Origin: a virus | Taxonomy: Duplodnaviria > Caudoviricetes | Length of the DNA: 48,466 bases | Strand: one strand, 5' to 3' | IMG/VR virus record: IMGVR_UViG_3300020045_003608 | Location: 1 to 48,466 of that record | Part shown: positions 7,949 to 47,997 of the stretch, in pieces | Layout: each line of letters begins with the position of its first letter | Position numbering within the stretch: the stretch's first letter is position 1 | Position numbers and translations under genes: made by a program | Notes under the pieces: generated by a model | What the model was told of the DNA's origin: nothing | Database searches by the model: none | Seen by the model: only the letters and a program-made list of their open reading frames with translations

Positions 7949-8083
7949 CTTTTTTGATTCCTTATAGTGAATAGGTAATTTGATAGTGAATGTACTAAAT
8001 GCGAGCAACCTTCACTAAAGGGCTTTCGGGAGCAAACCTAGCTCGCATTTAGATATTAAATCACATAATCACTGGAATGTCAA
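7949..8083 (-). promoter_or_regulatory. promoter plus class I structured leader
   Basis: TTGACA-17-TTTAAT; perfect 12-bp stem 7995-8006/8041-8052; loop UAGUGAA complementary to two downstream UUCACUA sites. Confidence 0.75.
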
Positions 8084-10245: not shown

Positions 10246-10297
10246 TTTCAGATTCTCCGAAAAGCGCGGTGTATTAACCGCGCTGTGTTGTTAAGGT

Positions 10298-11395: not shown

Positions 11396-11577
11396 AAACG
11401 TAAAAATCCTCAATAAAATTGTAAAAAATTAGAAGGTCGAATCACCGTATAGTAGGCGTGTTGGTATTCAATTTATTCCCAACATTCTAATTTTTACAAC
11501 CTCATTGAGGATTTGTAACTATAACTCGAATTCGACCTCGATTGCAAGTATTATTTCATACTTTTACGTTTTGTCAA
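11396..11577 (-). promoter_or_regulatory. promoter plus class II structured leader
   Basis: TTGACA...AATAAT; crossing helices 11530-11538/11434-11442 versus 11504-11514/11404-11414 (RBS) and 11485-11499/11419-11434. Confidence 0.7.
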
Positions 11578-11624: not shown

Positions 11625-12191
11625 TCAATCTTCTTCGGTTGTTACGCTTTCCAAAACTTTCTGACGTAGTTCCTGTTGCTGTTTTTGTGCAATTTTTGAG
11701 AATGTATCAATATCGATTACGTTACCATCTTCCCCAACATACACGTTGCTTTTTAAAATTCCGCCCGTGAAATCCATAGAAACCTTCGACTCCTGAACTT
11801 TATTTAACCCTTTTAATTCCGCTAATTTTGCGGCAGCTCCTGTGCGTTCGGAAGGTTTAGCTTGTTTATCGTTCATAACATCTCTGTATACATTTACAAT
11901 CTCAGCAATGTAAACCTCATCAGTATTATCTACCGACTCTAACCTATGCTTATGCGTACGAATCATATCCTGCACAAATGGTTCGGCGAGCATTTTTTTA
12001 TGATGTAATTGACTGTATGAGTAAATAAAACCGCATCTAATCAACGCCTTATAAGAATCGTTATCCTTAACGTATTCCTCAACAAATTGCTCACGGAGTT
12101 TTATTTCACGTTTTGTCAATTGACCCGGTTGCATGATAAAACTTAATTCATCATCTTCTTCTTTGTAACTATCTTCAACATAATCATTCAT
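11625..12191 (-). CDS. terS: terminase small subunit
   Basis: REQFVEEYVKDNDSYKALIRCGF...MLAEPFVQDMI...SERTGAAAKLAELKGL matches the Terminase_2 (SF6/SPP1 G1P-like) pattern; likely start MNDYVE. Confidence 0.7.
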   Translation of the reverse strand: MNDYVEDSYKEEDDELSFIMQPGQLTKREIKLREQFVEEYVKDNDSYKALIRCGFIYSYSQLHHKKMLAEPFVQDMIRTHKHRLESVDNTDEVYIAEIVNVYRDVMNDKQAKPSERTGAAAKLAELKGLNKVQESKVSMDFTGGILKSNVYVGEDGNVIDIDTFSKIAQKQQQELRQKVLESVTTEED

Positions 12192-12195
12192 ATTC

Positions 12196-17070: not shown

Positions 17071-17825
17071 ATGTCTAATTTACAAGTTTTTAATTTTGAT
17101 TCAGCAACAGTTGTCCGCACCTCGTTAGTAGATGGTGATGTTTAGTTTTTAGCCTCTGATATATCCGATTCTTTAGGTTATTCTGAAACATCTAAGGCTT
17201 TAGCATGGTGTAAACGAGCGACCTCTCAGGGCGATGTTAATAAAATCAATGATTTACATCCATCGTTGAAATGGATTCCTGAATCTGATATGTTCCGATT
17301 GATTATGAAGTCTACGAAACCAGAAGCTGAGAAGTTCCAGGACTGGATTTGTGAATCAGTTTTACCCTCAATCCGCAAAACAGGCTCATATTCTATCAAC
17401 AAAAACCAGACATTGAGGAAACAATTAAAGAAATGAATCTCCAGATGCGATTACTAACCTCACTTGGAAAAGCCAAAGATTACGAATTGGGTATGTTGAT
17501 GTTCGAGGAAGAAATGGGCTATCACCCAACTATTTTCTTACCTAGTCAGAAAACAATGACTTTCGATGAAAAACGTACCAAGATTCTCAACGCAGTGTCG
17601 CATATTTTAACCAACGGTAACTCTAGGGATTGTGATAAATTTAACGTATTGGCAATTGATGGCATTGTGACATTCACCGCTTTAAATTCGAGACTTAGAG
17701 GAATTGCTATTTTCAAAGGCGTTGATTTTAAATACCACGTTGAACGATTAGTAAATTCAGGAGATTTAATCAAAGTTGATTTAACTGAGTATGGTTTTAA
17801 GGCTGAAGGTTATCGATTAGGCTGA
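17071..17825 (+). pseudogene. BRO-N protein fused to a primase C-terminal-like domain; in-frame TAG and 1-nt frameshift
   Basis: Hand translation MSNLQVFNFD...DGDV*FLASDI...IPESDMFRLIMKSTKPEAEKFQDWICESVLPSIRKTGSYS; TAG at 17143 where BRO-N has Trp; joins ORF 17433 by a -1 shift at A5 17401-17405. Confidence 0.8.
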
Positions 17826-17871
17826 TCTCCCAAAAGAAGGTCAGTCAATCCCTAGCCTTCTAATTAAAACC

Positions 17872-18022
17872 TTGACTCACGCACTAAACTGTGATTTAAT
17901 ACCCACAGATGTTTTAAGTATGTGAGTACCAGTCATGATAGCTTAAAACATTTTATTTAACTCAATGGATAACGTACTGGTACTACGCTTGAAGTTGGGT
18001 TTTTTAATTTAAGGAGATTACA
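17872..18022 (+). promoter_or_regulatory. promoter plus class III (loop-loop/terminator) leader
   Basis: TTGACT-17-TTTAAT; AGTACCAGT (17925-17933) complementary to ACTGGTACT (17976-17984); U-tract at 18000-18005. Confidence 0.65.
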
Positions 18023-18799
18023 ATGCAACAGTTAGACATTTTACAGTTCAACAACAACGAAATTCGCAAAGTTATCGATAATGATAACAACACATGGTTT
18101 GTAGCTAAAGATATTTGCGAAGGATTATTTATCAGCAACGTTAGTGATGCACTTACTAAACTTGATGAGGATGAAAAGAGCGATATAGTTTTAACCGATA
18201 CCGCAGGTAGACCTAATAAATTCACCATTGTGAATGAATCTGGGATGTATGGGTTAACTATGTCATCGAGAAAGAAAGAAGCCCGTGAGTTTAAGAAATG
18301 GCTACGTTCCGAAGTTTTACCGAGTATTCGTAAAACAGGTAGTTACTCATTACCTAATGTAATTACCGCAGTAGATAACCTACCAACACCTCGCTCACAG
18401 GCTATTACTGTGATTAAAGAATGTTTGGAATTGACAAGTTTGTTTAATATCCCTGAGCATATTTCACAGGTAGAAGCTGTTAAGCAAGCTCAAGATGAAA
18501 CTGGGTATGATGCGTCACCGATGTTAAAATTAGCTCCTGCTCAACAGAACGTGGCTAAAGAAGTTATCATGTTAGAGCCTACTCCGCTTAGTAAGCATTT
18601 CGGTTTATCCGCCATTACTATGAATAAATATCTTGAGGAGTTAGGGTTGCAGCACAAGGTATTAGACAACTGGCATCCAATGGCAGAAGGTATCGCAATG
18701 TCGGCTATCAACCATTGGAAAAATAATTACGGTTCTAAAGACGGATACAATTATCGCTGGAATTTGACGATGTTGAAAGAATTTATTGCTAATAGGTAA
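18023..18799 (+). CDS. BRO-N antirepressor-like protein with KilA-C/ANT-like C-terminus
   Basis: TWFVAKDIC, VNESGMYGL..SRKKEAREFKKWLRSEVLPSIRKTGSY. Confidence 0.88.
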   Translation: MQQLDILQFNNNEIRKVIDNDNNTWFVAKDICEGLFISNVSDALTKLDEDEKSDIVLTDTAGRPNKFTIVNESGMYGLTMSSRKKEAREFKKWLRSEVLPSIRKTGSYSLPNVITAVDNLPTPRSQAITVIKECLELTSLFNIPEHISQVEAVKQAQDETGYDASPMLKLAPAQQNVAKEVIMLEPTPLSKHFGLSAITMNKYLEELGLQHKVLDNWHPMAEGIAMSAINHWKNNYGSKDGYNYRWNLTMLKEFIANR

Positions 18800-19137
18800 T
18801 TGGGTAGTTTACGAACCGACCTTCCAACTTAACTGTGACAAAGCTGCGTACGAGTATCTTGCACCACCACCACTGTGAATTTGTTTAGGGTAGTTTAATC
18901 GCTACCCTAAATATCACTAGCATTATACCAAATAACACGTTTTACAGCCCCATAGTTAAACGCAATCATGTTAAGCTATACGATTGCGTTGCCTGTTAAA
19001 CTAAACGCCTTGAATGAGGAGAATTGACATGATTAAGCATTACTCAACAACACAGACAATTAAAACTTGACTTAGGCTGTACAACAATTTAAAATATTTC
19101 CGAGTTAGGAAGACCTAGCTTACTTTTGGAGAATAGT

Positions 19138-19993
19138 ATGAAAATCAAAATGAAACACAAGTACATGTCGCGCGGTGGGTTGAAAGTCACGCTGGATTGC
19201 ATTGAAGTCGATTCGTCAAGTGACTATGTGGTTAAAGGGACTTTAAATGGCATGCAACGGGCTAGTTGGGACATTCGAGGTAGGTGGTCAACTACCGCCA
19301 CGTCTGACTTTGACCTTGTGAGAATCATCACGCTAGATAACAAATATGCTAAGGCATTCAGCGAGTTACCTAGTGGGTACGATTGGCTTGCGATGGATAA
19401 GAATGACGATTGGTTTGCATATATAAGAAAACCCGACGCTAGTCAATGTAGCTGGGTAACTGGTAGCATTGGTATGCCTGAATATATCAACCTACCACCT
19501 GTCAAAAACTGGAAGTGGTCATTGAGAAAGCGCGAGGATTACATTGTGAATTCTGGTGAGGCTATATCAGAGTCGCACTCTTGCGATGACATTAAACTGG
19601 AAGTTGGTAAGAATACATCAGAAACGATGGCGAGGTAATTAGTATCGTGAGGAGCAGACCAACAGCTGATAGCAACAAGATTGTTTATACAGACGATACT
19701 CCACATAAGTGGTGTTATTGGGAAAATGGTAGGTTCTGCGGACGTGAAGGTGTTAATGCACCTTATCACATTAAAAGTGAGTATGTTGGAGCTACTGACA
19801 AATCAACCTGACCGACACATACAAAACACGCAGTGGTCTAACTGTGCGTATAGTATCGATTAGTGAAGGTGGTGATTTTCCAGTGTTAGTTGCGATTAAG
19901 GAGGATTACGGTTGGGTGCTAGTTAGTTACTGTGCGAATGGGGACTATTCCTGTACTGTGGTTAGTAGTGAATATGATTTGGTGAAGGTGTAG
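19138..19993 (+). pseudogene. modular repeat-domain protein split by two 1-nt frameshifts
   Basis: After LEVGK the frame resumes YIRNDGEVISI..., then INLTDTYKTRSGLTVRIV...YDLVKV; same domain type as 805-1656. Confidence 0.6.
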
Positions 19994-20025
19994 GTAAGCT
20001 AAGAGCTGGTAAACAGATATTTATC

Positions 20026-20193
20026 TTGACAAATCACCTATTCTGTGAAACAATACTCTGGTAGTTAGAGATATTTAATTTTCACGGACAGGTGGTATAA
20101 ATTAAACCTTTCTTTCTACATCTTATCCTTGTGTATAGACCCTGTCCGGTTTGTATGCAGGGATTTTTTGTTTTATTTTAGAAAGGAAAGGTT
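20026..20193 (+). promoter_or_regulatory. promoter plus class III leader with intrinsic terminator
   Basis: TTGACA-17-AACAAT; CGGACAGG (20085-20092) complementary to terminator loop CCTGTCCG (20141-20148); 16-bp stem with G-U pairs plus U-tract. Confidence 0.78.
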
Positions 20194-20970
20194 ATGCAAC
20201 AGTTATTTTCAGCAGTAAGCTCAGCAAGCGTTAAAACTATGTCATCAATCGAAATCGTTAAGCTAATTAACGATATGCGCGAAGAAGGTTCTGCTATTTT
20301 GAGACATAGTGATTTTACAAATAAAGTTCTGAAAGTTTTAGGTGAGGAACCTGCGAAAAGATTCGTAGGTCAATATAAAGCAGGGAATGGTCAAATGCAA
20401 CCCTGTTATCATTTACCAAAACGCGAAACTAACCTAATGGTTATGTCTGAAAATCCTAGAGTTCAGGCGGCTGTTTATGACAGAATGGAAGTATTGGAGA
20501 AAGCTATTATCGCTACATCATCAAACCTTTCATTTGCAGATAGTCTCGCTGGAGCAGAAGTCATGGCTAGAATGCTCAATATGTCAGAATCATCAAAATT
20601 AACCCTAGTATCAGGAGTGATGAAAGTAAAAGCTCCTGAGTTGTTACACCTAGTACCTGTGTATGCTATTGACGCGCCTAATGCAACTGACGTTTCGTCA
20701 CGGTTGACATTCTCAGCGACAGTGTTGCTTGCGGAACACGGTAAACCAATGACGGCACAGAAGTTTAACATTATTGCAGTTGAGCGTGGTTATTTAACTG
20801 AAGAATCTCGTCCGTCAACTACGAAAGGTATTAAATTATTCAAATGTTTGACTGACAAAGGTTTAGCTTACGGTAAGAATATGACTTCGCCTAATAACCA
20901 AAGAGAAACTGCTCCGCATTATTACGCGGATAAATTTGATGAGTTATTAGTGTTGTTGGGGAGTAAGTAA
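20194..20970 (+). CDS. Rha-like antirepressor family protein
   Basis: KTMSSIEIV..LRHSDF..PCYHLPKRETNLMVMSE; C-terminal LTDKGLAYGKN..NQRETAPHYY. Confidence 0.8.
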   Translation: MQQLFSAVSSASVKTMSSIEIVKLINDMREEGSAILRHSDFTNKVLKVLGEEPAKRFVGQYKAGNGQMQPCYHLPKRETNLMVMSENPRVQAAVYDRMEVLEKAIIATSSNLSFADSLAGAEVMARMLNMSESSKLTLVSGVMKVKAPELLHLVPVYAIDAPNATDVSSRLTFSATVLLAEHGKPMTAQKFNIIAVERGYLTEESRPSTTKGIKLFKCLTDKGLAYGKNMTSPNNQRETAPHYYADKFDELLVLLGSK

Positions 20971-21027
20971 AGATTTACTATCGGCGCAGGTTCAACAATA
21001 ACTGCGACTTATTCCTTGCGATTTAAC

Positions 21028-21056
21028 TTGCAATTAGTTTAAAAACGTAGTACAAT
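21028..21056 (+). promoter_or_regulatory. sigma70-like promoter with AAAAACGTAG spacer motif
   Basis: TTGCAA-17-TACAAT. Confidence 0.6.
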
Positions 21057-21065
21057 AAGTATTAC

Positions 21066-21219
21066 TTGACAAATCAAACTATTTATGAAACAATACCGTC
21101 TGAATCTTTAGATTTGGTCGGGAAGGACTTATAAATCTAAACGTTTTCATCTAGCCTGCTTATAATCATACTTCCCTATGGTTATTCGGAGGCTTTTTTG
21201 TTTTAACGAGGAATGGAAT
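21066..21219 (+). promoter_or_regulatory. promoter plus class III leader with intrinsic terminator
   Basis: TTGACA-17-AACAAT; loop GGGAAG (21120-21125) complementary to loop CTTCCC (21171-21176) of a hairpin ending in TTTTTTG. Confidence 0.75.
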
Positions 21220-21920
21220 ATGACAGATTTAGTAGTATTTGAAACACCAATTTCAATGGATTCAGAAGGTAGATTTCGCTTAAATGATTTACATAAAGCG
21301 TCAGGTGGTGAACAACGTAATCGTCCAAATTATTGGCTTGAAAACGATAAAACAAAAGAATTTATAGAAGTCGTAAAATCGGCATCGGGCGAATTTACTG
21401 GTGTAGAGTCTGTTGTTACAGTAAAAGGCGGTGCGAAACAAGGAACCTTCGTGGTCAAAAGCCTCGTATACGCATACGTGATGTGGTTATCTCCTGCTTT
21501 TCAGCTCCATGTGATTGAAGCATTTGATAAACTCGTATCAGATAAAATCACTGAATTAGAATGGGTAGGTGTTAGAACTATTGTGAAGCAAGAATTCAAA
21601 ATATGAATTTTGCTAAGAAGAGTTTTCTTGAGGATAATAACAAGCCAATTACGCCTAAGGACTTTATAGACGAAGCCGATTTGATTAACTGTGTGGTATT
21701 AGGTATGCGAGCGAATAAGTATCGTGAAGCTAATAATATGACTAAGAAAGAGTCAATTCGAGATAGGTTATCGAAAGAAACTCTCGATATTATTGAAACG
21801 TTAGAGGTCATGAATACCCAACTTATAAACTGTGGTTTAATTCTAAGCGAAAGGTATTATCGAATATTGGATTTCTACAATAGACGGTATGGTGATGTGT
21901 CTAAGCTGCTTAGTAAGTAA
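21220..21920 (+). pseudogene. KilA-N protein split by a 1-nt frameshift
   Basis: RFRLNDLHKASG..RPNYWL..QGTFV..YVMWLSPAF; ORF 21603-21920 is in frame if the A4 at 21598-21601 were A5. Confidence 0.75.
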
Positions 21921-26786: not shown

Positions 26787-27815
26787 ATGTCAAAAGTTAA
26801 ATATAAACAGCTCCCATCTCAGCAGTACCTTAAAGAATGCTTCGATTACAACACTGAATCAGGTAAATTAGTTTGGAAAGAAAGACCTTTATCGCATTTT
26901 AAGAATACGCACGGGACATCTCACTTTAATTCACGCTATAAAGGATGTGTTGCAGGCACGCTATATGATACTGGATATGTTGAGGTATCTATAAATAAAA
27001 AAAGATTTAAGCTACATAGGTTAATCTGGAAATATCACATGGGAGACGACCCTATAGGACTTATCGACCATATCGATAGAGATAAATCTAACAACAGAAT
27101 TGAAAATTTACGAGATGTATCGCATATTGAAAATTCAAATAATAAATCAAATTCAAATGACTGCATCGGAGTTTATTTTATTCTAAATAGGTGGGAAGGT
27201 AGATTGACAATAAAAGGGAATTTAGTGTTGCTAGGTAGGTTTAAAAATAAGAATGATGCAATTGACGCTGTAAATTCAGCCAGAGTAAAAGATTGGTCTC
27301 ATTTAGAGACTAAGGTTAAAGTTAAGGGTACTTTGACATTAGAATATCTAAACGATAATTATGTGTATGAAAATGGGCATTTAGTTAGAAATAATAGGCG
27401 CGTAGGTAGTATTTCGGCAACTGGATATTCTATAGTTACTATTTTAAACGTATCGTATCAAGTCCATAGAGTGATTTATTGGTTATGCACTGGGATAAAA
27501 CCTGAGAATGGTGATGTAATTGACCATATTAACGGTGATAAATTAGATAATAGGATTGAAAATCTGAGATTAGTAACTGTGAGTCAAAATGGAATGAATA
27601 GAAAGGTATCACGTAGTAATACGTCAGGGTATGTAGGGGTGACATTTTGTAAAGACTCTCAAAAATGGAATGCTTCATTATATGAAGATAACAATCATGT
27701 TTACCTCGGCACATTCCAAACCAAAGAAGAAGCCGTCTCAGCCAGAAAAGCCGCCGAAGAACTCTATCACGGTGAATTCGCTAGAGTAACCACTACACAA
27801 GGAGAAATAAAATGA
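26787..27815 (+). CDS. tandem HNH-AP2 homing endonuclease
   Basis: Two HNH motifs (IDHIDRDKSNNRIENLR; IDHINGDKLDNRIENLR) plus AP2 domains; paralog of 10298-11395. Confidence 0.85.
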   Translation: MSKVKYKQLPSQQYLKECFDYNTESGKLVWKERPLSHFKNTHGTSHFNSRYKGCVAGTLYDTGYVEVSINKKRFKLHRLIWKYHMGDDPIGLIDHIDRDKSNNRIENLRDVSHIENSNNKSNSNDCIGVYFILNRWEGRLTIKGNLVLLGRFKNKNDAIDAVNSARVKDWSHLETKVKVKGTLTLEYLNDNYVYENGHLVRNNRRVGSISATGYSIVTILNVSYQVHRVIYWLCTGIKPENGDVIDHINGDKLDNRIENLRLVTVSQNGMNRKVSRSNTSGYVGVTFCKDSQKWNASLYEDNNHVYLGTFQTKEEAVSARKAAEELYHGEFARVTTTQGEIK

Positions 27816-28677: not shown

Positions 28678-29514
28678 ATGGAAGAAAAGATTTACTGTAT
28701 TTACAAACACACTGCACCTAATGGTAAATCTTATATTGGGCAAAGTTGTAGATACAAAGAAAGATGTAACAGTCACAAAAATTCAAAAGAGGATATTCCG
28801 TTCCCAAGAGCAATTAGAAAATATGGTTGGGATAACTTTAAGCACGAAATACTATTAAGTAATCTCACATTAGATAAAGCAAATAAATACGAAGAATTTT
28901 ATATCAGTGAACATAATACAATGACTCCTAATGGGTATAATGCTCAGACAGGAGGAAAGAATTGTAAAGTAAGTGATGAAACTAGAATGAAACATTCTAA
29001 GGCTCATAAAGGTGTTCCAAAAACGCAGGAGCATAAAGACAAAATAGGTCTTGCTCATAAAGGTAGAAAATTAAGTCCTGAACATATACAGAAACTTATA
29101 GACATCAATACTGGTAGAAAACTATCCCCAGAACATATTGCTAAAGTTGTAGCTTTTAAATTAGGAAAACCTTTATCAGAAGAAACAAAATCGAAAATAA
29201 GTCAAAGTAATACAGGTAAATCTAAGTCAAAATCGCACGTTGAAAATATGGTAAAGACAAAAGCTGAATTAAAATTCAAATCAGAATATGTATTATATAA
29301 GGAAAATATAGAATTGCTTTCAAATTATCAGGTAATTGGTGCATTACAATTATCCACATTAGTAGGTGTTGATAGAATGACGATTAAAAATAGAATTTAT
29401 GATAATTTATTTCCAAATGTCACAAGGGGTTTGACAGGAAGTAAACCTTGGATAATTCCAATCCACGACGTACACAATTACTACAACGACGGATTTTTAA
29501 AATATGGAGAATAG
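28678..29514 (+). CDS. GIY-YIG homing endonuclease with NUMOD3 repeats and C-terminal HTH
   Basis: CIYKHT..NGKSYIGQ, RAIRKYGWDNF, PNGYN..GG; overlaps the terminase start. Confidence 0.87.
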   Translation: MEEKIYCIYKHTAPNGKSYIGQSCRYKERCNSHKNSKEDIPFPRAIRKYGWDNFKHEILLSNLTLDKANKYEEFYISEHNTMTPNGYNAQTGGKNCKVSDETRMKHSKAHKGVPKTQEHKDKIGLAHKGRKLSPEHIQKLIDINTGRKLSPEHIAKVVAFKLGKPLSEETKSKISQSNTGKSKSKSHVENMVKTKAELKFKSEYVLYKENIELLSNYQVIGALQLSTLVGVDRMTIKNRIYDNLFPNVTRGLTGSKPWIIPIHDVHNYYNDGFLKYGE

Positions 29515-31486
29515 AAAAGTAATTTGGACACCTAATCCTGGTAGTCAATCATTAGCATTACAAGTACCTGCTGATATTGTCTGTGTACATGGGGGTAGAG
29601 GCGGAGGGAAGAGCGACACTCAGTTGTTTCGATACCGCCAAACAGTACACCAAGGGTACGGTAGGCACTGGAGGGGCTTAATCGTGGACAGAACCTACTC
29701 CGCTCTTGAAGATTTAATCAATAAAACTAAAAAATACTTTCCGTTATTTAACGACGGAGCGAGATTCCTCGAGAGTCGGGGCGCGTACAAATGGGTTTGG
29801 AAGGACGGAGCAGAGCTATTATTCCGTGCCGTCGCTGACGAAGATGATTATTCAAAATTGCATGGTCACGAATTTTGTCTACATATCAATGAGTTAATAG
29901 ATATTGAAGGTAAGGGTTTAGTTGAAATAAAAGACGTTATTGTAGGTGACAAAATTTTAACACCCGTTGGTTACAAGTCAATAACAAAAGTTTTTCCGAT
30001 ACAAGATAAAGAATGTAACACTGTTTATGTGTTTGATAAACAAAATAACATTATCGGACACCAGATTCAATCGACAGACCATAAACTTCTTACCAGTAAA
30101 ATTAGAGGTTTTCAGAAGGCTAAAAACAGACAATCCGTTGCGTTAATGAGCGATGTTGTTGGTGACGATTGGTTTCCGCATCCATATAAAACACATGAAT
30201 CAGTTTTCACTAAATTTAAGTTTGAAAGTGGCACGATTCAAGTTGCACCTTGCGGAATAAAACCAACAATTGACATTACAGTAGAAGACGTGAATTGTTA
30301 CGTCAGTCCAGTCACGCGATTGATTTCTCGTAACTGTTTTATTGGAATTAACGAGGCTACAAAATACCCAGATACTAAAGTGTTAGACTTACTAATGAGT
30401 TTAAACAGAACATCATTCGTACCCGAAGAAAACCCTCTACCAGACGGAACTGTTCTACCACCTATACCAATGTGTGTATTCATCACCACGAACCCTAGCG
30501 GCAGCGGACGATTACCATTCAAGCAGCGTTTCATTGATAAATCTGCGCCAGGAGAAATTCTGAAAACTGAAGTTGAAGTATTTAATCCTCGCACACAAGA
30601 AAAAGAAATTATCACAAAAACACAAGTACATATTTTTTCTAGTTGTTTAGAAAATCTACAATTAGACCCTTCCTATATAGCTGATTTACAATCAATATCT
30701 GACCCAATAAAACGCGCACAGTGGTATTTAGGCGACTGGGGTTCATGTGACGATACTGAAAATATGTTTGCTGATATATGGCAGCCCAATGTCCATGTGA
30801 TGAAACCGTTTGCAATACCTGAATCATGGAAAATCTATCGCTCTTACGACCACGGAGAAGCAAAGCCGTTTAGTGTTGGCTGGCACGCTATTTCTGACGG
30901 CTGCGATGTTGAATTACATGATAATAGAACTATCAGCACGGTGAAGGGTGATATTTTCAGAATTGCTGAGTGGTATGGTTGTGAAGTAGGAAAGCGTAAT
31001 ACAGGTCTTAGGATGCTTGCTACAGACATCGCAAAAGGCATCATAGAAAAAGAAATATCATTAGGGATTTACGGTAAAGTTATCCCAGGTGCAGCAGACA
31101 ATGCTATCTGGACAGTTGAAAATGGCAACAGTATCGCAGCATCAATGATGCGTCCAGTTAGATTAGATAGTGGACGTACCGTCTCAGGTGTAACATGGGC
31201 AAGGTCTGATAAAGGTTCTGGGAGTAGAGTAGTAGGTTGGTCTAATATGCGAAAGCATTTAGCTGGTGCAATTAAGCCCCTATCTGGAGTAAGAGAATAT
31301 GCGGGGTTATTTATCTTTGATACCTGTCATGATTTTATTAAATTAGTAGATACTATTCCAAGGGATAAAAATAACCCCGATGACATCGATACTAAGGCAG
31401 AGGATCACATTTTCGACGAAGCACGTTATTTTATCCTCTCCACCGCCACTGGCGCACGCTCAGGTAAAACAGTAGGTCTATCATGA
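29504..31486 (+). CDS. terL: terminase large subunit (contains an intein)
   Basis: Walker A GGRGGGKS, Walker B-like FIGINE, motif C TTNPSG, nuclease SYDHG...PDDIDTKAEDHIFDEARY. Confidence 0.93.
   Translation: MENRKVIWTPNPGSQSLALQVPADIVCVHGGRGGGKSDTQLFRYRQTVHQGYGRHWRGLIVDRTYSALEDLINKTKKYFPLFNDGARFLESRGAYKWVWKDGAELLFRAVADEDDYSKLHGHEFCLHINELIDIEGKGLVEIKDVIVGDKILTPVGYKSITKVFPIQDKECNTVYVFDKQNNIIGHQIQSTDHKLLTSKIRGFQKAKNRQSVALMSDVVGDDWFPHPYKTHESVFTKFKFESGTIQVAPCGIKPTIDITVEDVNCYVSPVTRLISRNCFIGINEATKYPDTKVLDLLMSLNRTSFVPEENPLPDGTVLPPIPMCVFITTNPSGSGRLPFKQRFIDKSAPGEILKTEVEVFNPRTQEKEIITKTQVHIFSSCLENLQLDPSYIADLQSISDPIKRAQWYLGDWGSCDDTENMFADIWQPNVHVMKPFAIPESWKIYRSYDHGEAKPFSVGWHAISDGCDVELHDNRTISTVKGDIFRIAEWYGCEVGKRNTGLRMLATDIAKGIIEKEISLGIYGKVIPGAADNAIWTVENGNSIAASMMRPVRLDSGRTVSGVTWARSDKGSGSRVVGWSNMRKHLAGAIKPLSGVREYAGLFIFDTCHDFIKLVDTIPRDKNNPDDIDTKAEDHIFDEARYFILSTATGARSGKTVGLS
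29876..30334 (+). mobile_element. mini-intein (153 aa, no endonuclease domain)
   Basis: Begins CLH, block B STDH, block F TIDITVE, ends SRN followed by Cys+1; removal restores LHGHEF-CFIGINE. Confidence 0.88.
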
Positions 31487-31740
31487 GTAGGACATTCCGT
31501 AACCGTGAACGCACTTACATCCAAGATATGCGTACATTTTTAGAATGGGAAATGTTATTCAACGCTAAATATAATTTGTTGAGTAAATATACAGAATCCT
31601 ACCTAAATAAAAAATTATCTAAATACTACACTGACTCCGCACATTTACATAAATCCGATTTGTGGGAATTTGCAGTACGATATAAGAAATTAAAACAACA
31701 ACCTTTAAGGGAAATTGATGGAAAACTTCAAAGACTATAA
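31483..31740 (+). CDS. hypothetical protein
   Basis: 85 aa, ATGA overlap with terL. Confidence 0.5.
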   Translation: MSRTFRNRERTYIQDMRTFLEWEMLFNAKYNLLSKYTESYLNKKLSKYYTDSAHLHKSDLWEFAVRYKKLKQQPLREIDGKLQRL

Positions 31741-31859
31741 ACCTCAGAAACAAGACAAACGCTCTAAGCCTGTGCGAGGTAAGCATAGGGAGGAATGATT
31801 AGGTGGATGTCAATAAGTATGTTATAGTAATCACTTAACTTAACCAAGGAGTATCAAAA

Positions 31860-32615
31860 ATGCAATACAAATTTGCACAAGATTTCAAACCTCATCATGT
31901 AGTTAAACCTTTCCAAATTCCTAGCAATTGGAAAATCATCAAGTCATTCGCTCACGGTTATAATGTGCCATTTATCGTAGCTTGGTTTGCTGTATCAGAT
32001 GAAGGTAAAGTGTACCTAATCAACCATGTAACAGGTACGCAAAAGTCAGTTAAAGAAATTGCAGATATTATCAAATCTACTCAAGATAACAATTTTATTT
32101 CATGTAATTACAATATCGCAGATAACGCTATCTTTTTTAAAGACGGTGAAACTAGCATTTACAAAGCATTAAGCAATAACGGCATCGAATTTAAACCAGC
32201 TAATAGCGCATTGGGTAGTCGTAGTACGGGCTGGAATAAACTTCACGAATTGTTGCAAAACAACAAATTCTTTATTTTTGCTGGTAATAGTGTGTTTACA
32301 GGAGAACTGTTTGCCGCTGAAGTTGATAGAAATGACCCTGATGATGTAGATTCGCGTTATACGAGACATTTAGATGTGATTCGGTATGCGTTGCAGGTTG
32401 TGGATGAGGTTACTATAAGCAGATTAACACCTACTGATGCTAAAAAAATTCAGAATGTGTTGTTACAATTGAAAACTGAAAATAAATCGCTAAATGGTAG
32501 AAATGAGTATTTGGAGGATGCTGTACAAGCTATTCTTGATAGAGAGTCGTTGCTGATAGATGAAGTAAAACGATTAGAAACTATACTTGCAAAACATTAT
32601 CTTTTAAGAAAATAA
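31860..32615 (+). CDS. degenerate duplicate of the TerL nuclease domain plus coiled coil
   Basis: Aligns by eye with the TerL C-terminal third; AGGAG RBS. Confidence 0.8.
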   Translation: MQYKFAQDFKPHHVVKPFQIPSNWKIIKSFAHGYNVPFIVAWFAVSDEGKVYLINHVTGTQKSVKEIADIIKSTQDNNFISCNYNIADNAIFFKDGETSIYKALSNNGIEFKPANSALGSRSTGWNKLHELLQNNKFFIFAGNSVFTGELFAAEVDRNDPDDVDSRYTRHLDVIRYALQVVDEVTISRLTPTDAKKIQNVLLQLKTENKSLNGRNEYLEDAVQAILDRESLLIDEVKRLETILAKHYLLRK

Positions 32616-32626
32616 AATTATTTCTA

Positions 32627-32652
32627 AGGAGAGGTAAAATCTCTCCTTTTTT
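32627..32652 (+). terminator. intrinsic terminator
   Basis: AAGGAGAG-loop-CTCTCCTT-TTTT. Confidence 0.6.
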
Positions 32653-32672
32653 AACACTCGGAGAATTATAAA

Positions 32673-32992
32673 ATGCGCCCTTTAGAATCATTGGTACAAG
32701 TATCACACAAACTACAACCTTACTTTAAAAGTAAATTATTTGAAGTAACTGCTGAAAATGAAAAGAACATGAGTTATATTTAAAACAAGATAGAATACTA
32801 TTTCTATGTGAGTGCGGTGGATTAAATACTTGCCCTCATGTGATTAGAGAAAAGGAATGGTATGAAGAAAGTAAACGTCGGAGAGCATTGGAATCACTAG
32901 AAAAAATTGCTAATAACAGTAGCAAATCTGACGATTCATTGATATACGGTATCACTGGAGTAATAGTAGGATTAGGATGCGCGTATGCGTAG
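32673..32992 (+). pseudogene. small gene split by a 1-nt frameshift
   Basis: MRPLESL...AENE continues KEHELYLKQ...CECGGLNTCPH...GVIVGLGCAYA if the A4 at 32761-32764 were A5. Confidence 0.5.
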
Positions 32993-33176
32993 AAACTACC
33001 ACATCAAATTGATTTCCAACGGTGAAGTTATCGATACAATCGCGTTATGCGCCTTCACTAACTATCAAGCGAAGAAAGAAGTTATCTACGATATTAAGAA
33101 TGATGAATATTGGCATATAAATGATATTGAATTGTACCGTAATGACGGTAAGATTATTAAGAAATTCGCACTTTAA
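32985..33176 (+). CDS. hypothetical protein
   Basis: 63 aa, AGGA RBS. Confidence 0.5.
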   Translation: MRRNYHIKLISNGEVIDTIALCAFTNYQAKKEVIYDIKNDEYWHINDIELYRNDGKIIKKFAL

Positions 33177-33382
33177 TTATACTCGGAGGAATCAAAATGA
33201 CACTATCTAACTCAAGAAGTAAAACCAAATCCATCCTACTAAGACACAAATTTAAAATTTATACCGGTTGCGTATGTCGAAGTTTCTTCAATAAAATGAT
33301 ACCTCACGATTGGTATTATCTAAAGTAGCTACTTATAAAACTTGACAAAAACCTTCCATTGTGATATAAGTAGTTATTAACA

Positions 33383-33607
33383 ATGGAGGGTTTAGTGCAT
33401 TTAAAATTAGGGAATAAGTTATGTAATTCATCTTTTTGGAAGTTATTACAAATTTTCATTAACCTACTGACAATTGGATTGCCTATTTTAACAATGATTT
33501 CACCGGAGTTTAACATTGACGCTAGTAAATTAGCAACTATTATCACAACTGTCGCTGCGATGAATTTATACTTAACAACCGCTACTACTGAGGACATTGG
33601 TTTATGA
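33383..33607 (+). CDS. small membrane protein, possible holin
   Basis: Two hydrophobic segments; start uncertain. Confidence 0.4.
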   Translation: MEGLVHLKLGNKLCNSSFWKLLQIFINLLTIGLPILTMISPEFNIDASKLATIITTVAAMNLYLTTATTEDIGL

Positions 33608-33649
33608 TTAAACTAACAATACCTACTAATCTAAGAAGGTTTATATCGT

Positions 33650-33856
33650 ATGAATAAACTAAAATTAACAATGACTACCGACCTAGCTAAACGCTATCAT
33701 ACAAAGAAATTCAAACGCTCGTTATCAGCCCTATACCAAAAGAAACTACTCCACGAGTTTAGAATATGCTTACAGTACGACGCGCTTCACAAAATACCTG
33801 TGATAATCACACTGTGGGAAATGTCTAAAGAATCTACTAAAGGAACTACTAAATGA
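33650..33856 (+). CDS. basic hypothetical protein
   Basis: 68 aa, overlaps the portal start. Confidence 0.45.
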   Translation: MNKLKLTMTTDLAKRYHTKKFKRSLSALYQKKLLHEFRICLQYDALHKIPVIITLWEMSKESTKGTTK

Positions 33857-35376
33857 TTAACGCAGCACACCCATTATATTCCGAGCAAATTGCAGACTGG
33901 CAACTACTCAGAGACAGCTACAAAGGCGAAGACGCTATCAAACGAAAAGGTGTAGCGTATCTACCCCCTACCGGTGGACAAACGTTAGACGGTATGACTT
34001 CTACACAAGATGTAGGCTTCCAAAACTATACTTCATACAAAACTCGCGCTATCTACCCCGATTACATCCACACAGCTATTGAATCTTATGTGGGTTTATT
34101 ACACAACAAACCTACAGCCATCACATTACCTCCTGAAATGGAATTCATGCGTGACAAGGCTACTATTACAGGAGATTCTCTTGATAACCTTCTACGTCGA
34201 ATTCATGTCCAACAACTTATTACTGGGCGTGTCGGTCTACTTTTAGATATTGAATCGAAAGCATCTACAGGTACGCCACAACCCTATATAGCAATGTATC
34301 ATGCTGAGAATATCTTAAATTGGGACGATGGGGATGTGATTGATGGCAAAAACGCATTGAATCTAGTCATGCTTGACGAGTCTAATTATTTTAGGTCATC
34401 AGACTTCACATGGTATTATCGCAATAAGTACCGTATCTTAACATTAGGCGACGTACTTCTGTTTGAAGATGAAAACGAAAACGCCGTTTACAAACAATCA
34501 GTATCAGAATCACAATCTTTAAATAGCGCAATTACAATTACTCCACAAGTTTATAGTCAACCATTAGAAGAAATCCCATTCGTATTTATCAATTCAAAAG
34601 ACATCCTCACTACACCTGATGTACCGCCGTTATTGGGACTTGCTCGAGCTTGTTTATCAATCTACCGAGCAGAAGCTGATTACCGTCACACGTTGTATAT
34701 GCAAGGTCAAGAAACACTTGTTGTGATTGGCGGTAATAACAACCCTGACGAAGAAACTCGCGTAGGTGCAGGTAGCAAAATTGAAGTTCACCCTGGCGGA
34801 GATGCTAAATTCATTGGTGTGTCATCAGCAGGTTTATCTGAGATGCGTCAGTCGCTTGAAAATGACCGTAGCGCAGCACAAGCTAAAGCAGGGCAGTTGC
34901 TTAACTCTAAATCTACACAAGAGTCAGGTGACGCTCTACGTCTTAGAATGGTTGCTCAAACAGCTAATCTTACGCAAATTGCAATCACTGCTGCGTATGG
35001 TGTAGAAAAACTACTCAAGATTTGTGCAGTATGGATGAAATGCGACCCTGAAATGGTTTCTGTGACCCCTAACCTAGACTTTGTGAATACGTCTATGCAC
35101 GGTCAAGATTATGTGCAGTTGATGCAAGCTATTGCGATGGGACTACCTTTGCAAGAAGAGTCAATCCATGACATCTTGCGTACGCAGAAGCTAACTACTA
35201 AGTCTTATGCTGAGGAATCTAAGGCTGCTAATAAGGAGCGTGAGGTTAGATTAGCTGCAACTATGACACAAGGTGAGCAAACTACTGCAACAAACGCTGA
35301 TGGTAACCCTGTAGGTACAGCTAAACCTGTGAGTAATCCTAGTAAAACTTTGAAACTAGGTGTCTCTAATAAGTAA
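33853..35376 (+). CDS. portal protein (DUF4055 type)
   Basis: HPLY..WQLLRD..GE..IK..G..YLP, YKTRA, GRVGLLLD, YHAENILNW, IPFVF, PPLLGLA; position after terL. Confidence 0.9.
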   Translation: MINAAHPLYSEQIADWQLLRDSYKGEDAIKRKGVAYLPPTGGQTLDGMTSTQDVGFQNYTSYKTRAIYPDYIHTAIESYVGLLHNKPTAITLPPEMEFMRDKATITGDSLDNLLRRIHVQQLITGRVGLLLDIESKASTGTPQPYIAMYHAENILNWDDGDVIDGKNALNLVMLDESNYFRSSDFTWYYRNKYRILTLGDVLLFEDENENAVYKQSVSESQSLNSAITITPQVYSQPLEEIPFVFINSKDILTTPDVPPLLGLARACLSIYRAEADYRHTLYMQGQETLVVIGGNNNPDEETRVGAGSKIEVHPGGDAKFIGVSSAGLSEMRQSLENDRSAAQAKAGQLLNSKSTQESGDALRLRMVAQTANLTQIAITAAYGVEKLLKICAVWMKCDPEMVSVTPNLDFVNTSMHGQDYVQLMQAIAMGLPLQEESIHDILRTQKLTTKSYAEESKAANKEREVRLAATMTQGEQTTATNADGNPVGTAKPVSNPSKTLKLGVSNK

Positions 35377-35619: not shown

Positions 35620-36429
35620 ATGACTATTCAATTAAACGTACAAGAAGACAACTTAGATTCTGTACCAGCACAATTCCACGAATTATACACACAAGACGGT
35701 GATAAATTCAAACTATCTGGCATCAACGGCTTAAAGACATCTGAAGATGTCGCTAAATTAAGCGAGGCTATCCGTAAGGAACGTGAGAATCACGCATTAG
35801 CTAAAGTAGAATTGGCTGCGTATAAAGAAATCAATCTTGAGCCAGCGTTCATCATGGAGCAGTTGTCCTTAGTTGAGGAGCTTAAAGCTGCTAAAGAAGC
35901 CAAACAAGATGATGGTAAATTTGACCAAGCGGTTGCTTCTGTGGCAGACGCTAAAGCGAAAGCTGTCATTCGCCCACTCGAAGCTAAGTTGCAACAATTA
36001 GAGCAAGAATACTCTACAGCCACTGTGCGATTACAACAGTTTGAGCAAGAAAAGAAAGCTCGTATTATCACAGATAGCGTGCAGTCAGCAATTACCAAAC
36101 ACAAAATCTCACCTGAGTTTCATGAGCATATTCACTTGGTAGCTGAGCGTGAATTTGAAGTTGATGATAACACAAACCCAGTAACTCGTGATGGCTTACG
36201 CGGCGTGCCAGGTTACTTAAATCCTGAGTTATGGATTTCTGAATGTCAATCTCGTTACCCACATTGGTTTGGTACTCATGTAGGTGGTGGCGCAATGGGG
36301 TCTGGTAGTACAGCAGGCACTGTGAATCCATTTGCTGAAAAATCGTTTAATGCTACTGCACAAGCAAGAATGATTCGTGATAACCCTGCGTTAGCAGAAC
36401 GTATGAAACAGGCAGCTGGAGTTAGATGA
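35620..36429 (+). CDS. head scaffolding protein
   Basis: LDSVPAQFHELY, long coiled coil, PHWF..GGGA.G, NPF..FNAT.Q. Confidence 0.82.
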   Translation: MTIQLNVQEDNLDSVPAQFHELYTQDGDKFKLSGINGLKTSEDVAKLSEAIRKERENHALAKVELAAYKEINLEPAFIMEQLSLVEELKAAKEAKQDDGKFDQAVASVADAKAKAVIRPLEAKLQQLEQEYSTATVRLQQFEQEKKARIITDSVQSAITKHKISPEFHEHIHLVAEREFEVDDNTNPVTRDGLRGVPGYLNPELWISECQSRYPHWFGTHVGGGAMGSGSTAGTVNPFAEKSFNATAQARMIRDNPALAERMKQAAGVR

Positions 36430-36881
36430 TCATGCAAAGATATATCGGAGTAATCTTGATTAAAGCTATCGCTATGAAATTACTTGACGCTGAAAAACAA
36501 ATGCGATGCCAAATTTCATATAAAGTTGGTATTCCCGACAATGATAGGGATACGAATGGATATATTGTAACGTTACAAGAAGATTCATGTCCATATGATA
36601 TATGGATGACTAAAGAACAATTCGATAAAGAATATCGTCCAATTGACGGTATGACATTCGGTCTTGCAATTGAAGCGTTAAAACAAGGCAAAAAAGTTGC
36701 GCGTGCTGGTTGGAATGGAAATGGTATGTACCTTGAAGCTCAGTTTCCTGACGAGCGAAGCAAAATGACTCACCTATATCTTTTTATGACGATACCAGAA
36801 TGCAAAGAAGGTACACGAAGAATTCCTTGGCAACCAGCACAAGTAGATTTGTTCGGCGAAGATTGGAGTATCGTCGAATAA
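36426..36881 (+). CDS. DUF2829 / Tad2-like protein
   Basis: MTFGLAIEALKQGKKVARAGWNG..MYL...PWQPAQVDLFGEDW. Confidence 0.8.
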   Translation: MIMQRYIGVILIKAIAMKLLDAEKQMRCQISYKVGIPDNDRDTNGYIVTLQEDSCPYDIWMTKEQFDKEYRPIDGMTFGLAIEALKQGKKVARAGWNGNGMYLEAQFPDERSKMTHLYLFMTIPECKEGTRRIPWQPAQVDLFGEDWSIVE

Positions 36882-37364: not shown

Positions 37365-37498
37365 TTGACATTTGCATGAATCTATGATTTAATATGCACA
37401 GTGTCTCAGCACGAAAACAATTATCAAATATCCTTATATGTAACGGCTGTTGGGTTTTTATTGTACCCTCTGAGAGCAGCCACCATAAAGGACTCAAA
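37365..37498 (+). promoter_or_regulatory. promoter plus class II structured leader
   Basis: TTGACA-17-TTTAAT; TCTCAG (37404) / CTGAGA (37470) crossing TCCTTATATG..GGCTGT / GCAGCC..CATAAAGGA (RBS). Confidence 0.65.
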
Positions 37499-38260
37499 AT
37501 GACAAAGTTAGTAACTCTCCAATACAACGAAATTCCTGTAATCTTCCAATCTGATGATGCTTATATCAATGCTACGCAAATTGCGAAAGTATTTGGTAAA
37601 AAGCCCGAAACTTATCTAAAAACAGACCGCACTCAAGAATATATAGCTGAATTATCATATTCACTTTTTAGTGCAGTTGACGAAAAGCAATTAGTCATTG
37701 TTAAAAATGGCTCTAGTGCTAATGGTGGTGGCACATGGTTACATCCAAAGTTAGCGGTAGATTTTGCAAGATGGTTAGATACAAAATTCGCAGTATGGTG
37801 TGACAAGCAAATCGAATCTCTCCTAAAAGGTGAATCAGTTATCGTCAAAAAATCAGACTTATCTGTAATTGTCAATGAAACAGAAGCCGCGATTAAATTA
37901 GCAAATCTATTCGGCTTATCAGGTAATCAAGCATTACTATCTGCCGACAAAGCGATTACTCGACGTTTAGGCGAATCGCCAATGGCTATCATGGATATTC
38001 AAATGCTCATCTGTGAAGTACCTAAAGATACTTTCACTGTGACTAAATTAGGAGAATCTTTCGGTATCAAAGCGCGCGCGTTTAACTTACTGTTGCAAAC
38101 TCATGGTTTCCAAGAAAGTATCTTAGGTAAGTGGGAAGCGACTGAAAAAGGAAAACCTTACTCTGAAATGGTTGACGTTGACAAAGCTAACGGCGGTACT
38201 CCCGTAAAACAACTTCGTTGGTATCAAGATGTTGTTGATGCGATTCCTAATTTGAAATAA
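37499..38260 (+). CDS. KilA-N antirepressor-like protein with ANT-like C-terminus
   Basis: Start MTKLV after AAGGA; YINATQIAK.FGK, GTWLHPKLAVDFARWL; C-terminus resembles that of 18023-18799. Confidence 0.87.
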   Translation: MTKLVTLQYNEIPVIFQSDDAYINATQIAKVFGKKPETYLKTDRTQEYIAELSYSLFSAVDEKQLVIVKNGSSANGGGTWLHPKLAVDFARWLDTKFAVWCDKQIESLLKGESVIVKKSDLSVIVNETEAAIKLANLFGLSGNQALLSADKAITRRLGESPMAIMDIQMLICEVPKDTFTVTKLGESFGIKARAFNLLLQTHGFQESILGKWEATEKGKPYSEMVDVDKANGGTPVKQLRWYQDVVDAIPNLK

Positions 38261-38931: not shown

Positions 38932-39567
38932 ATGAAAAGAGAAGATTTAACACTTGAATACTTACACGAATGTTTTACTTATGATAAAGAAAATGGTGAG
39001 TTGTATTGGAAAGAACGTCCTAGAAGTCATTTTAGTAGTGATAGAGGGATGAAGACTGCGAATTCTTCTTGTGGTTGGAAAATTGTTGGAAGCATCCAAA
39101 AAAGTAGAGATAATGGTGACTATAAAGTAGTCAGATTAAATCGGGTTGGATTTTATATAAGTAATTTAGTATGGATGTTCGAAACTGGAGAATTGCCATC
39201 AGGGCGTATTTTCTATTCAAATAATAATGCTTTAGATACTCGATTTGAAAATTTAAAATTATCAAATAAATTTTATATTCAAAAGTCTCGTGAAGGGAGA
39301 TTTATAGCAATGGTTGACTATTGCGATAAATATATTAGTGTTGGAACATTTGAAAACAAATCATCAGCGATAACAACTTGTAAAAAAGCACTTTCTGAAA
39401 TTGAAAATGGAACATTCGTTCATAATGAAGTAGTTTCTGATGCTGGTTTCAAAGGGGTTTCATGCGTAGGCGATAAGTTTAAAGCTAGATTCAAAGGTAT
39501 TCATTTAGGACTTTTCAACACCGCCGAAGAAGCCCACGAAACCTACCTAGCTGCTAAATCCAAATAA
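38932..39567 (+). CDS. degenerate HNH-AP2 family protein
   Basis: HNH-type N-terminus (LHECFTYDKENGELYWKERP) but active-site His/Asn residues missing; two AP2-like domains. Confidence 0.7.
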   Translation: MKREDLTLEYLHECFTYDKENGELYWKERPRSHFSSDRGMKTANSSCGWKIVGSIQKSRDNGDYKVVRLNRVGFYISNLVWMFETGELPSGRIFYSNNNALDTRFENLKLSNKFYIQKSREGRFIAMVDYCDKYISVGTFENKSSAITTCKKALSEIENGTFVHNEVVSDAGFKGVSCVGDKFKARFKGIHLGLFNTAEEAHETYLAAKSK

Positions 39568-46908: not shown

Positions 46909-46934
46909 AAAGCCTCGTTTATTCGGGGCTTTGT
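46909..46934. terminator. bidirectional terminator between convergent genes
   Basis: AAAGCCTCG-TTTATT-CGGGGCTTT. Confidence 0.6.
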
Positions 46935-47926
46935 TTTATGTAGTAATCGTGAACGTCTTGTATAGGTATTAACCAAGGTTGTCGTCCTTGATAACCAGTC
47001 CCAACATACGCATTAGGATAATCTTTATTTTTAATTCTTTTTATAACTGTCATTTTGGTAACACCTATCATTTTACAAATGTCATCCGTTCTTAAAATAA
47101 CTCCTTCGTCAAACATATCAATGTTGTCGCTATAAATTGGAAATTCTTTGCTCAATTGATTGTTTTTATTTGCAATAGTAACTTTCTCAACCCATTCGTC
47201 AGTTAACTCTCTACCTTTAAATCGTTCAGATTGTGACAATTTAAATTCGTCAGTGCGTTTAGTACCTAAACTAGCAACCCTACTTTTTGCTGCCCATTCG
47301 GGATGTTGAGGTACTCCAGTCCTAGCTAATGCTGATTTGGCTATATTTTCAGGAGTCTGAAATCTACCGTCATAACGCAATCTACATACTTCAATAAATT
47401 CTTCTGTTGCAGGAGGTCTATTCTTCTGAGCTTCCGACATCTTCGCACGAGTTTCTTCGGAATGAGTATAACCTATCATTCTTTCAGCTCTTTTACGAAT
47501 AGCTAGAGGTGAGAATTTCTTACCTTTCATTCTAGCTTTTAATTTTTCAACCCATTCAGGTGACATCTTTCTACCTTTTCCCGCCGCACTGATTTTAGCT
47601 CTTGTTTCTTGAGAAGTTGCAAATTTATTACCACCCTCTCTAAGATTGTACCCGTTTGGAGTTATCGTATTTCTTTTTAAAATTTCTTCAGCTTCTAGCA
47701 AATTAGCTTCTGCTAGTGTTAGATTGTCATGTAGAGTCTCTTTTATTAGATTGTCCCAACCATATTTATTCACAAATACCCAAACTAAAGACTTTTTACA
47801 ATGACCTCTTTTATGCTCCTGCATCCTACGTTTAAAATCATTAGTTTGCCCAATATAACTCTTACCACTAGGTGACGTAATCATATAAATGCAATGTTTT
47901 CTTTCTTCTACCGCAACCACACTCAT
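46919..47926 (-). CDS. GIY-YIG homing endonuclease with NUMOD3 repeats and C-terminal HTH, inverted in the tail operon
   Basis: CIYMITSPSGKSYIGQT, KYGWDN, PNGYNLREGG; likely start MSVVAV after GGAGG; paralog of 28678-29514. Confidence 0.87.
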   Translation of the reverse strand: MSVVAVEERKHCIYMITSPSGKSYIGQTNDFKRRMQEHKRGHCKKSLVWVFVNKYGWDNLIKETLHDNLTLAEANLLEAEEILKRNTITPNGYNLREGGNKFATSQETRAKISAAGKGRKMSPEWVEKLKARMKGKKFSPLAIRKRAERMIGYTHSEETRAKMSEAQKNRPPATEEFIEVCRLRYDGRFQTPENIAKSALARTGVPQHPEWAAKSRVASLGTKRTDEFKLSQSERFKGRELTDEWVEKVTIANKNNQLSKEFPIYSDNIDMFDEGVILRTDDICKMIGVTKMTVIKRIKNKDYPNAYVGTGYQGRQPWLIPIQDVHDYYIKQSPE

Positions 47927-47968
47927 AATAACCTCCAAACCAACCACTTCATTCATACTATAAACTCC

Positions 47969-47997
47969 TTGACAAATCAATAAAATTGTGCAATACT
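47969..47997 (+). promoter_or_regulatory. sigma70-like promoter restarting the tail operon
   Basis: TTGACAAATCA...TGTGC-AATACT, 17-bp spacer. Confidence 0.6.

Follow-up and report, generated by a model that had tools for sequence, protein, structure and literature searches.

A 251-aa protein (P0001) with the nuclease fold of the phage large terminase (TerL) is encoded as a separate gene between terL and the portal gene of a virus sequence that also carries an intact terL. Judged from its sequence, P0001 is a stand-alone variant of a known domain; it is real and rare, and it is probably under selection. The window, meaning the whole stretch of DNA analysed, is a linear virus record of 48,466 bp with an estimated completeness of 79% and a GC content of 37%, and it encodes the head and tail module of a tailed phage. 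The features on which the analysis rests are these:

29504..31486, + strand: resident full-length TerL, 660 aa, all nuclease Asp residues intact, with an intein-like insert at 29876-30334
31483..33852, + strand: variable accessory slot from terL to portal, with ORFs of 85 aa, 26 aa, P0001, 50 aa, 63 aa, 74 aa and 68 aa
31846..31851, + strand: Shine-Dalgarno-like AAGGAG, 8 nt 5' of the P0001 ATG (sequence)
31860..32615, + strand: P0001 ORF, 251 aa, a TerL nuclease-fold protein that stands alone and ends in a helical tail (sequence, alignments, profile match, predicted model)
31860..32399, + strand: P0001 residues 1-180, RNase H/RuvC-like terminase nuclease domain, beginning at the linker that joins ATPase and nuclease, with loops of the compact type (14/32/33/15)
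31950..31952, + strand: Ala31 at the first catalytic Asp position (D449 of TerL; Thr in the homolog P0003)
32121..32123, + strand: Asp88, second catalytic position, retained (D532 of TerL)
32364..32375, + strand: R169-H170-L171-D172, a D-H-x-x-D motif with its first Asp gone and one residue missing; third catalytic Asp retained (D638 of TerL)
32400..32612, + strand: P0001 residues 181-251, helical tail carrying a heptad of leucine-zipper type (codons 32448-32588), for which no homolog was found and which P0003 does not share
33853..35376, + strand: portal protein (phrog_145), which closes the slot on the right

The reading frame and its active site

The ORF starts at a position equivalent to the interdomain linker of TerL and has no N-terminal packaging ATPase (Walker A/B). 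The in-frame stretch upstream, which brings the open frame to 258 aa in total, does not contain ATPase sequence either. The codon use of P0001 is phage-like, with a CAI of 0.72 against 0.67 for terL, 0.69 for portal and 0.76 for capsid, the shifted frames scoring 0.49 and 0.64. The ORF is intact, in agreement with the initial annotation, which had described an intact ORF with a strong ribosome binding site. Promoter-like sites were near background (16, with 11.0 +/- 3.7 expected by chance), and no informative repeats were found flanking the gene.

The relationship to a terminase nuclease domain, also proposed in the initial annotation, is borne out by alignment, profile and structure prediction. 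P0001 and the nuclease half of the resident TerL are identical at 58 of 221 positions (26%; pairwise alignment E 3e-17), a profile built from true TerLs only scores P0001 at E 3e-17, and PHROG 5653 matches it. The AlphaFold2 model, based on a 105-row alignment, has a pLDDT of 89, and its residues 1-180 are modelled as strands and helices of RNase H type. Its best structural match in the PDB by Foldseek is the P22 nuclease 4dkw (E 2.6e-9), with the Avs3-bound PhiV-1 terminase 8dgc among the further matches (E 6e-4). Terminase nucleases rank first in BFVD as well, and the Atlas search was concordant; sequence searches of the PDB found nothing significant. Taken together, the sequence profiles, the model and the Foldseek matches place P0001 in the C-terminal RNase H/RuvC-like fold of TerL. 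With the large-terminase nucleases (P22 gp2 4dkw, D6E 5oe8-5oee, G20c 5m1k, SPP1 G2P; Pfam Terminase_6C, PHROG 5653) it has in common the fold and strand order, the R-Y motif and two of the catalytic Asp residues, the second and the third. Unlike them, it has no ATPase domain, has lost the first Asp, has a damaged D-H-x-x-D motif and a replaced native C-terminal tail, and is a second gene alongside an intact TerL.

Residues D449, D532, H635 and D638 of the resident TerL align with A31, D88, H170 and D172 of P0001; correspondence to D266/D321/D403 of SPP1 was set by motif and secondary-structure position and not by residue-level superposition. The first catalytic position is Asp in all 148 of the other aligned domains, Ala in P0001 and Thr in P0003, which confirms the substitution noted in the initial annotation. 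Of the three acidic residues expected of a TerL, P0001 therefore keeps only the second and third. The loss of an EDH motif, which had also been claimed, is partly correct: the E and D are replaced, but His170 remains, one residue nearer the third Asp, and both Asp88 and Asp172 are retained. Conservation in at least 70% of 132 diverse TerL domains defines 36 columns. Both P0001 and P0003 retain 25 of these, and both have lost nine, including the acidic D31 (100% conserved), E56 (97%) and D169 (95%). The G-S-R-x-x-G-W motif, D88, D172 and R175 are among those retained in P0001. As far as the sequences can tell, this is the pattern of a fold that is maintained while catalysis has been dropped. 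The short TerL-like proteins among 147 representatives, many of which resemble fragments, retain the first Asp.

In SPP1 the equivalent residue, D266, is reported to bind both metals and D266N to abolish cleavage (PMC3592435), and in G20c D294N is reported among the least active mutants (PMC5389553). By comparison with these two mutants the P0001 nuclease is likely to be inactive, and the earlier description of a catalytically dead domain is supported as that of a likely nuclease-dead, maintained TerL-fold protein. An enzyme acting on nucleic acids through a rebuilt site could be imagined, since two of the three core Asp are retained in both copies and E56 has become His in both, so that D88 and D172 might work with a new His at position 32, 56 or 170. 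H32 and H170 are Tyr in P0003, however, and the lost Asp is the one that bridges both metals, its mutation abolishing cleavage in SPP1 and strongly lowering it in G20c, which makes such an enzyme very improbable.

The initial annotation also described a fused coiled coil. A heptad repeat is present in the P0001 tail (I197, L204, L211, L218, I225, L232 and L239, in the region 197-243; P=0.004 against shuffles), and helices are modelled at residues 191-209 and 216-250. The tail of P0003 is unrelated to it and has no heptad signal (3/6, P=0.78). The coiled coil is therefore not a family feature, since the sole close homolog is without it. Nothing that matches the tail of P0001 came up in phage records, in the loci or among the features of the Atlas, and the zipper is probably a lineage-specific addition outside the core mechanism.

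Relatives, selection and lineage

Only one close homolog of P0001 was identified. P0003, found by word-based searches among 260 and 1,611 candidates, has 244 aa and is encoded on a contig of 2,116 bp. Its identity to P0001 is 71% across 203 aligned columns, and it too lacks the first Asp. A scan of 1.84 billion representatives gave 656 matches at E <=0.001, and P0003 alone was below 1e-30 (507 bits, the next match having 77.6). A total of 327 records of deposited phages were matched, each at one place; among the 30 of these matches listed, 27 are on annotated terminase genes, two are in unannotated records and one is on hypothetical proteins. Of 68 related virus records chosen, 50 were searched in full (12 of them at least 90% complete), and no second nuclease copy was found in them. 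A TerL nuclease is present in 166 of 167 loci, and none of these 166 showed a second copy either; 133 of them have at least 1.5 kb downstream, and many loci are near-copies. Viral, metagenome and genome contigs did not yield the DNA of P0003. With the portal or the 85-aa neighbour as query, no relatives came up in viral contigs, and a scan of bacterial genomes for the TerL clade found no relatives and indicated no host. Deposited phages whose TerL nucleases resemble the resident one include 9g, JenP1 and Acinetobacter phage HD01, with identity reaching about 55%. On this sequence evidence, the gene type is rare.

Several candidates were set aside. The matches at L001-L004 in the first viral scan arose by chance within an unrelated gene, and P0004 is an ordinary TerL. 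L121 and L147, which had appeared to hold two nucleases, each have one TerL interrupted by a stop. In both, one in-frame stop within the nuclease domain breaks the frame (near 2110 in L121 and near 1308 in L147), through either recoding or sequencing error.

The P0001-P0003 pair was compared with a neutral simulation of divergence (one protein pair, 41 differences in 178 columns). The probability of no stop was 0.06-0.07 and that of substitutions this conservative 0.001-0.013, with a joint probability <=0.00075. Core columns bearing the consensus differ in the pair at 2 of 27, where about 6.5 would be expected (P about 0.015). Overall depletion of changes at family-conserved columns was not significant (17/77 against 25/89, p=0.47; 6/36 against 31/125, p=0.22; the tests span p=0.22-0.51). 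An intact homolog exists and its divergence is non-neutral in the simulation, in place of the neutral decay that would have spoken against the initial annotation. P0001 is likely to be maintained by purifying selection, as judged from this one pair.

It is also conceivable that P0001 is a recombination relic, the 3' half of the terL of another phage left in the slot and decaying slowly, with chance tails read into the downstream DNA. There are two members only, their tails are unrelated and the slot is variable; there is also the lack of overall depletion, and the greatest divergence lies around the active-site hairpin, with 15 of 37 pair differences in residues 136-180. Such a relic would not readily account for a frame still free of stops after a divergence of about 60% (P(no stop) 0.0003, although part of this distance may predate the loss of function), for a clean start at the domain linker with its own ribosome binding site, for codon use that fits the phage or for the conservative substitutions. 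Residues 1-30 are moreover identical in the pair, an identity that could have come from recent exchange. A relic is accordingly improbable.

The initial annotation took P0001 to be a duplicate of the resident terminase domain, which is probably incorrect. The P0001 gene has no similarity to terL at the DNA level, and many other TerLs outscore the resident one against P0001 (best 77.6 against 48.3 bits). The lengths between anchor residues are 14/32/33/15 in P0001 and P0003 and 29/43/43/26 in the resident TerL clade. All 140 relatives of the resident TerL lack the short first segment, and the smallest summed length difference among them is 43 residues. The short segment is present in 71 of 132 diverse TerLs, 11 of which are within 6 residues in total and one of which (P0151) is identical in all four segments, although these 132 were chosen by similarity to the query and are biased toward loop-length agreement. 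Duplication fits less well because four deletions restoring the compact lengths would be needed. The conserved C-terminal peptide that follows the last helix in the resident TerL clade is missing from P0001.

In the best trees the P0001/P0003 pair lies among compact TerLs, outside a 20-row insert-bearing clade (support 100/100, 100/99). AU tests of grouping with the resident clade were at most borderline, with p=0.21 for all 46 rows, 0.043-0.044 with four long rows dropped and 0.18 for a wider 11-row group. The P0001 branch is long (1.3-2.0 changes per site among the matches from the representatives), and identity to the 191 TerL domains compared is about 30-36%. A first tree, in which long branches joined, was not relied on. 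The nearest rows are compact Terminase_3/Terminase_6-type TerLs (P0151, P0149, P0150 and P0152), full-length or nearly so, which share the loop lengths of P0001. They differ from it in retaining the first catalytic Asp and the ATPase half, identity is low and the donor itself was not found among them. From the loop lengths and trees, the P0001 domain has probably been captured from another TerL lineage.

The compact loop lengths could point to a weapon against other phages. A co-infecting phage of the donor (compact-TerL) lineage would have its packaging blocked by P0001 docked on its portal, TerS or TerL ring, and the resident motor would be spared. The nuclease domains of HK97 are reported to form a ring directly under the portal (PMC10359639), unlike the arrangement in a T4 review, which puts the ATPase ring there (PMC9958956), and P0001, being without an ATPase, would be unable to translocate DNA. 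At its low identity and on its long branch, however, a lineage-specific interface would probably have eroded, the native C-terminal tail is replaced and no donor phage or shared host was found. This use of the domain is unlikely.

A possible decoy for terminase sensors

Tentatively, P0001 may be a captured pseudo-nuclease that binds but does not cut, and most plausibly a competitive decoy for a host sensor of the terminase nuclease fold. The TerL nuclease fold is retained and the first catalytic Asp is lost, as seen in the alignment and the predicted model, and nuclease activity would have gone with that Asp, as in the SPP1 and G20c mutants. By its loop lengths and trees the domain would be of foreign origin, by the one homolog pair it would be under selection, and by its position and strand it would be co-expressed with the resident TerL. 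P0001, free of an ATPase, would then fill the nuclease-binding pocket of an Avs3/Avs1-type sensor such that activation is incomplete, and the real TerL would escape detection.

Avs sensors are reported to recognise homologs or folds across low sequence similarity (PMC13601566, PMC13728456, PMC13581612, PMC11564622), so a foreign, disabled domain can plausibly compete at such a sensor. SeAvs3 is described as binding the nuclease domain in its native fold (PMC13601566, PMC13728456). Counted in favour of a decoy are also the variable slot in relatives, a C-5 methylase in the equivalent slot of one of them and a Tad2-like gene in the window. Counted against it, a sibling phage manages without P0001 and only two sequences are known. 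SeAvs3 also reads active-site residues, the central one of which is absent from P0001.

The initial annotation had linked P0001 to defence by giving TerL as an established trigger of Avs systems. The link is weaker than given there: EcAvs2 and Upx are reported to read the TerL ATPase domain, and KpAvs2 to be switched on by the nuclease domain alone for three of five terminases (PMC13601566). A nuclease-only decoy would not shield against EcAvs2 or Upx, since both sense the ATPase domain, and a protein like P0001 could instead trigger defence, given the response of KpAvs2. The likelihood given to a decoy is kept low because a recognised active-site residue is lost, because of this trigger risk and because the host was not identified.

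The same principle is proposed for P0001 as is described for DSAD1, an inhibitor of DSR2 that competes with the tail tube, a structural phage trigger, on its sensor (PMC11087589). The sensor of DSAD1 differs, and nothing in the analysis links P0001 to DSAD1. The anti-Avs proteins ORF55 (a ligase) and ORF83 (DprA-like), as described in their source, are not terminase look-alikes (10.1101/2025.06.06.658234). No description of a stand-alone dead terminase domain or of a terminase decoy was found in the literature covered, which for the most part did not extend to subscription journals.

Motor interfaces are expected to be lineage-specific. It could be, though this is doubtful, that phages repeatedly capture and disable single terminase domains, foreign ones included, as decoys against fold-reading sensors, and that P0001 is one of an undescribed 'pseudo-PAMP' class of anti-defence proteins, in which a foreign domain would be favoured for blocking the sensor without jamming the phage's own motor. 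Avs1-3 and Upx sense terminase through its fold, which is hard for a phage to change. A free, disabled and probably foreign terminase domain beside terL is a direct and cheap test case for the decoy route.

The slot between terL and the portal gene

The position of P0001 between terL and portal, on the same strand, could also suggest an accessory of the phage itself in packaging or DNA metabolism. A vestigial nuclease of this kind would bind DNA ends, TerS or the resident TerL and tune cutting, and the retained G-S-R-x-x-G-W motif, D88, D172 and R175 would fit such a role. The C-terminal vestigial nuclease of phi29 gp16, which has the terminase-nuclease fold, has lost catalysis and has been retained, as P0001 has, is reported to keep DNA binding (PMC7672431). 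The phi29 domain is described there as fused to the packaging ATPase and essential; P0001 is free-standing, optional and probably foreign. To judge by the 166 related terL loci and the 50 fully searched records that lack P0001, the motor does not need it, and the nuclease domain of P0001 is not basic (pI 7.0). Of the three functions put forward in the initial annotation (a decoy, a packaging regulator or a dominant-negative against competing phages), that of regulating the phage's own motor loses further weight through the likely foreign lineage and the loss of the conserved C-terminal TerL peptide. By comparison with phi29 and on these points, such an accessory is rather improbable.

Among 131 loci with terL and a downstream portal gene, the gap is under 100 bp in 95 and at least 500 bp, with varied small genes, in 29. 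In the three deposited records examined, the portal gene or an unnamed equivalent directly follows terL. The closest sibling (L010, TerL nuclease 70% identical) has no P0001-type gene, and its terL-portal gap is only 454 bp. The slot of L017 holds a C-5 cytosine methylase gene at 10234-10677, preceded by a homolog of the 85-aa neighbour.

Other small ORFs in the slot have relatives. The 85-aa gene is overlapped at its end by a basic 26-aa ORF (31718-31798, + strand). This ORF is conserved in L010 (6795-6866; 71% over 24 aa), with a stop there after nine codons of the frame. The hydrophobic 74-aa ORF (33383-33607, + strand), which might at a guess encode a holin, is matched by a homolog in the corresponding slot of L038, L039 (9870-10127) and L094. 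Several relatives have a 90-93-aa protein in their terL-portal slot (L019 3527-3796, L041 10212-10490 and related loci), which presumably resembles HU/IHF.

Beyond the portal, the Tad2-like gene (36426-36881, + strand; PF11195 E 1e-20) directly follows the scaffold gene, and a similar ORF is in the same place in L010 (9620-9997). The only TerS-like matches in the window are in the replication arm, at 11625-12227 and 1895-2305, both on the - strand (phrog_5334 / phrog_141), and directly 5' of terL, in place of TerS, is a GIY-YIG endonuclease gene. At least seven genes like those of homing endonucleases (HNH, GIY-YIG, NUMOD3) are present in the 48 kb, at 5047-5748, 6962-8008, 10298-11413, 26787-27815, 28678-29514, 38932-39567 and 46919-47980. 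Bro-N, KilA-N, Rha and antirepressor-like genes cluster at 17266-21920 and 37394-38260. The intein-like insert of the resident TerL (29876-30334, + strand) runs from Cys125 to Asn277, just before the Walker B region; the label is based on motifs, an NCBIfam search having given no match. The insert is absent from P0005 and common to P0006, P0007 and P0014.
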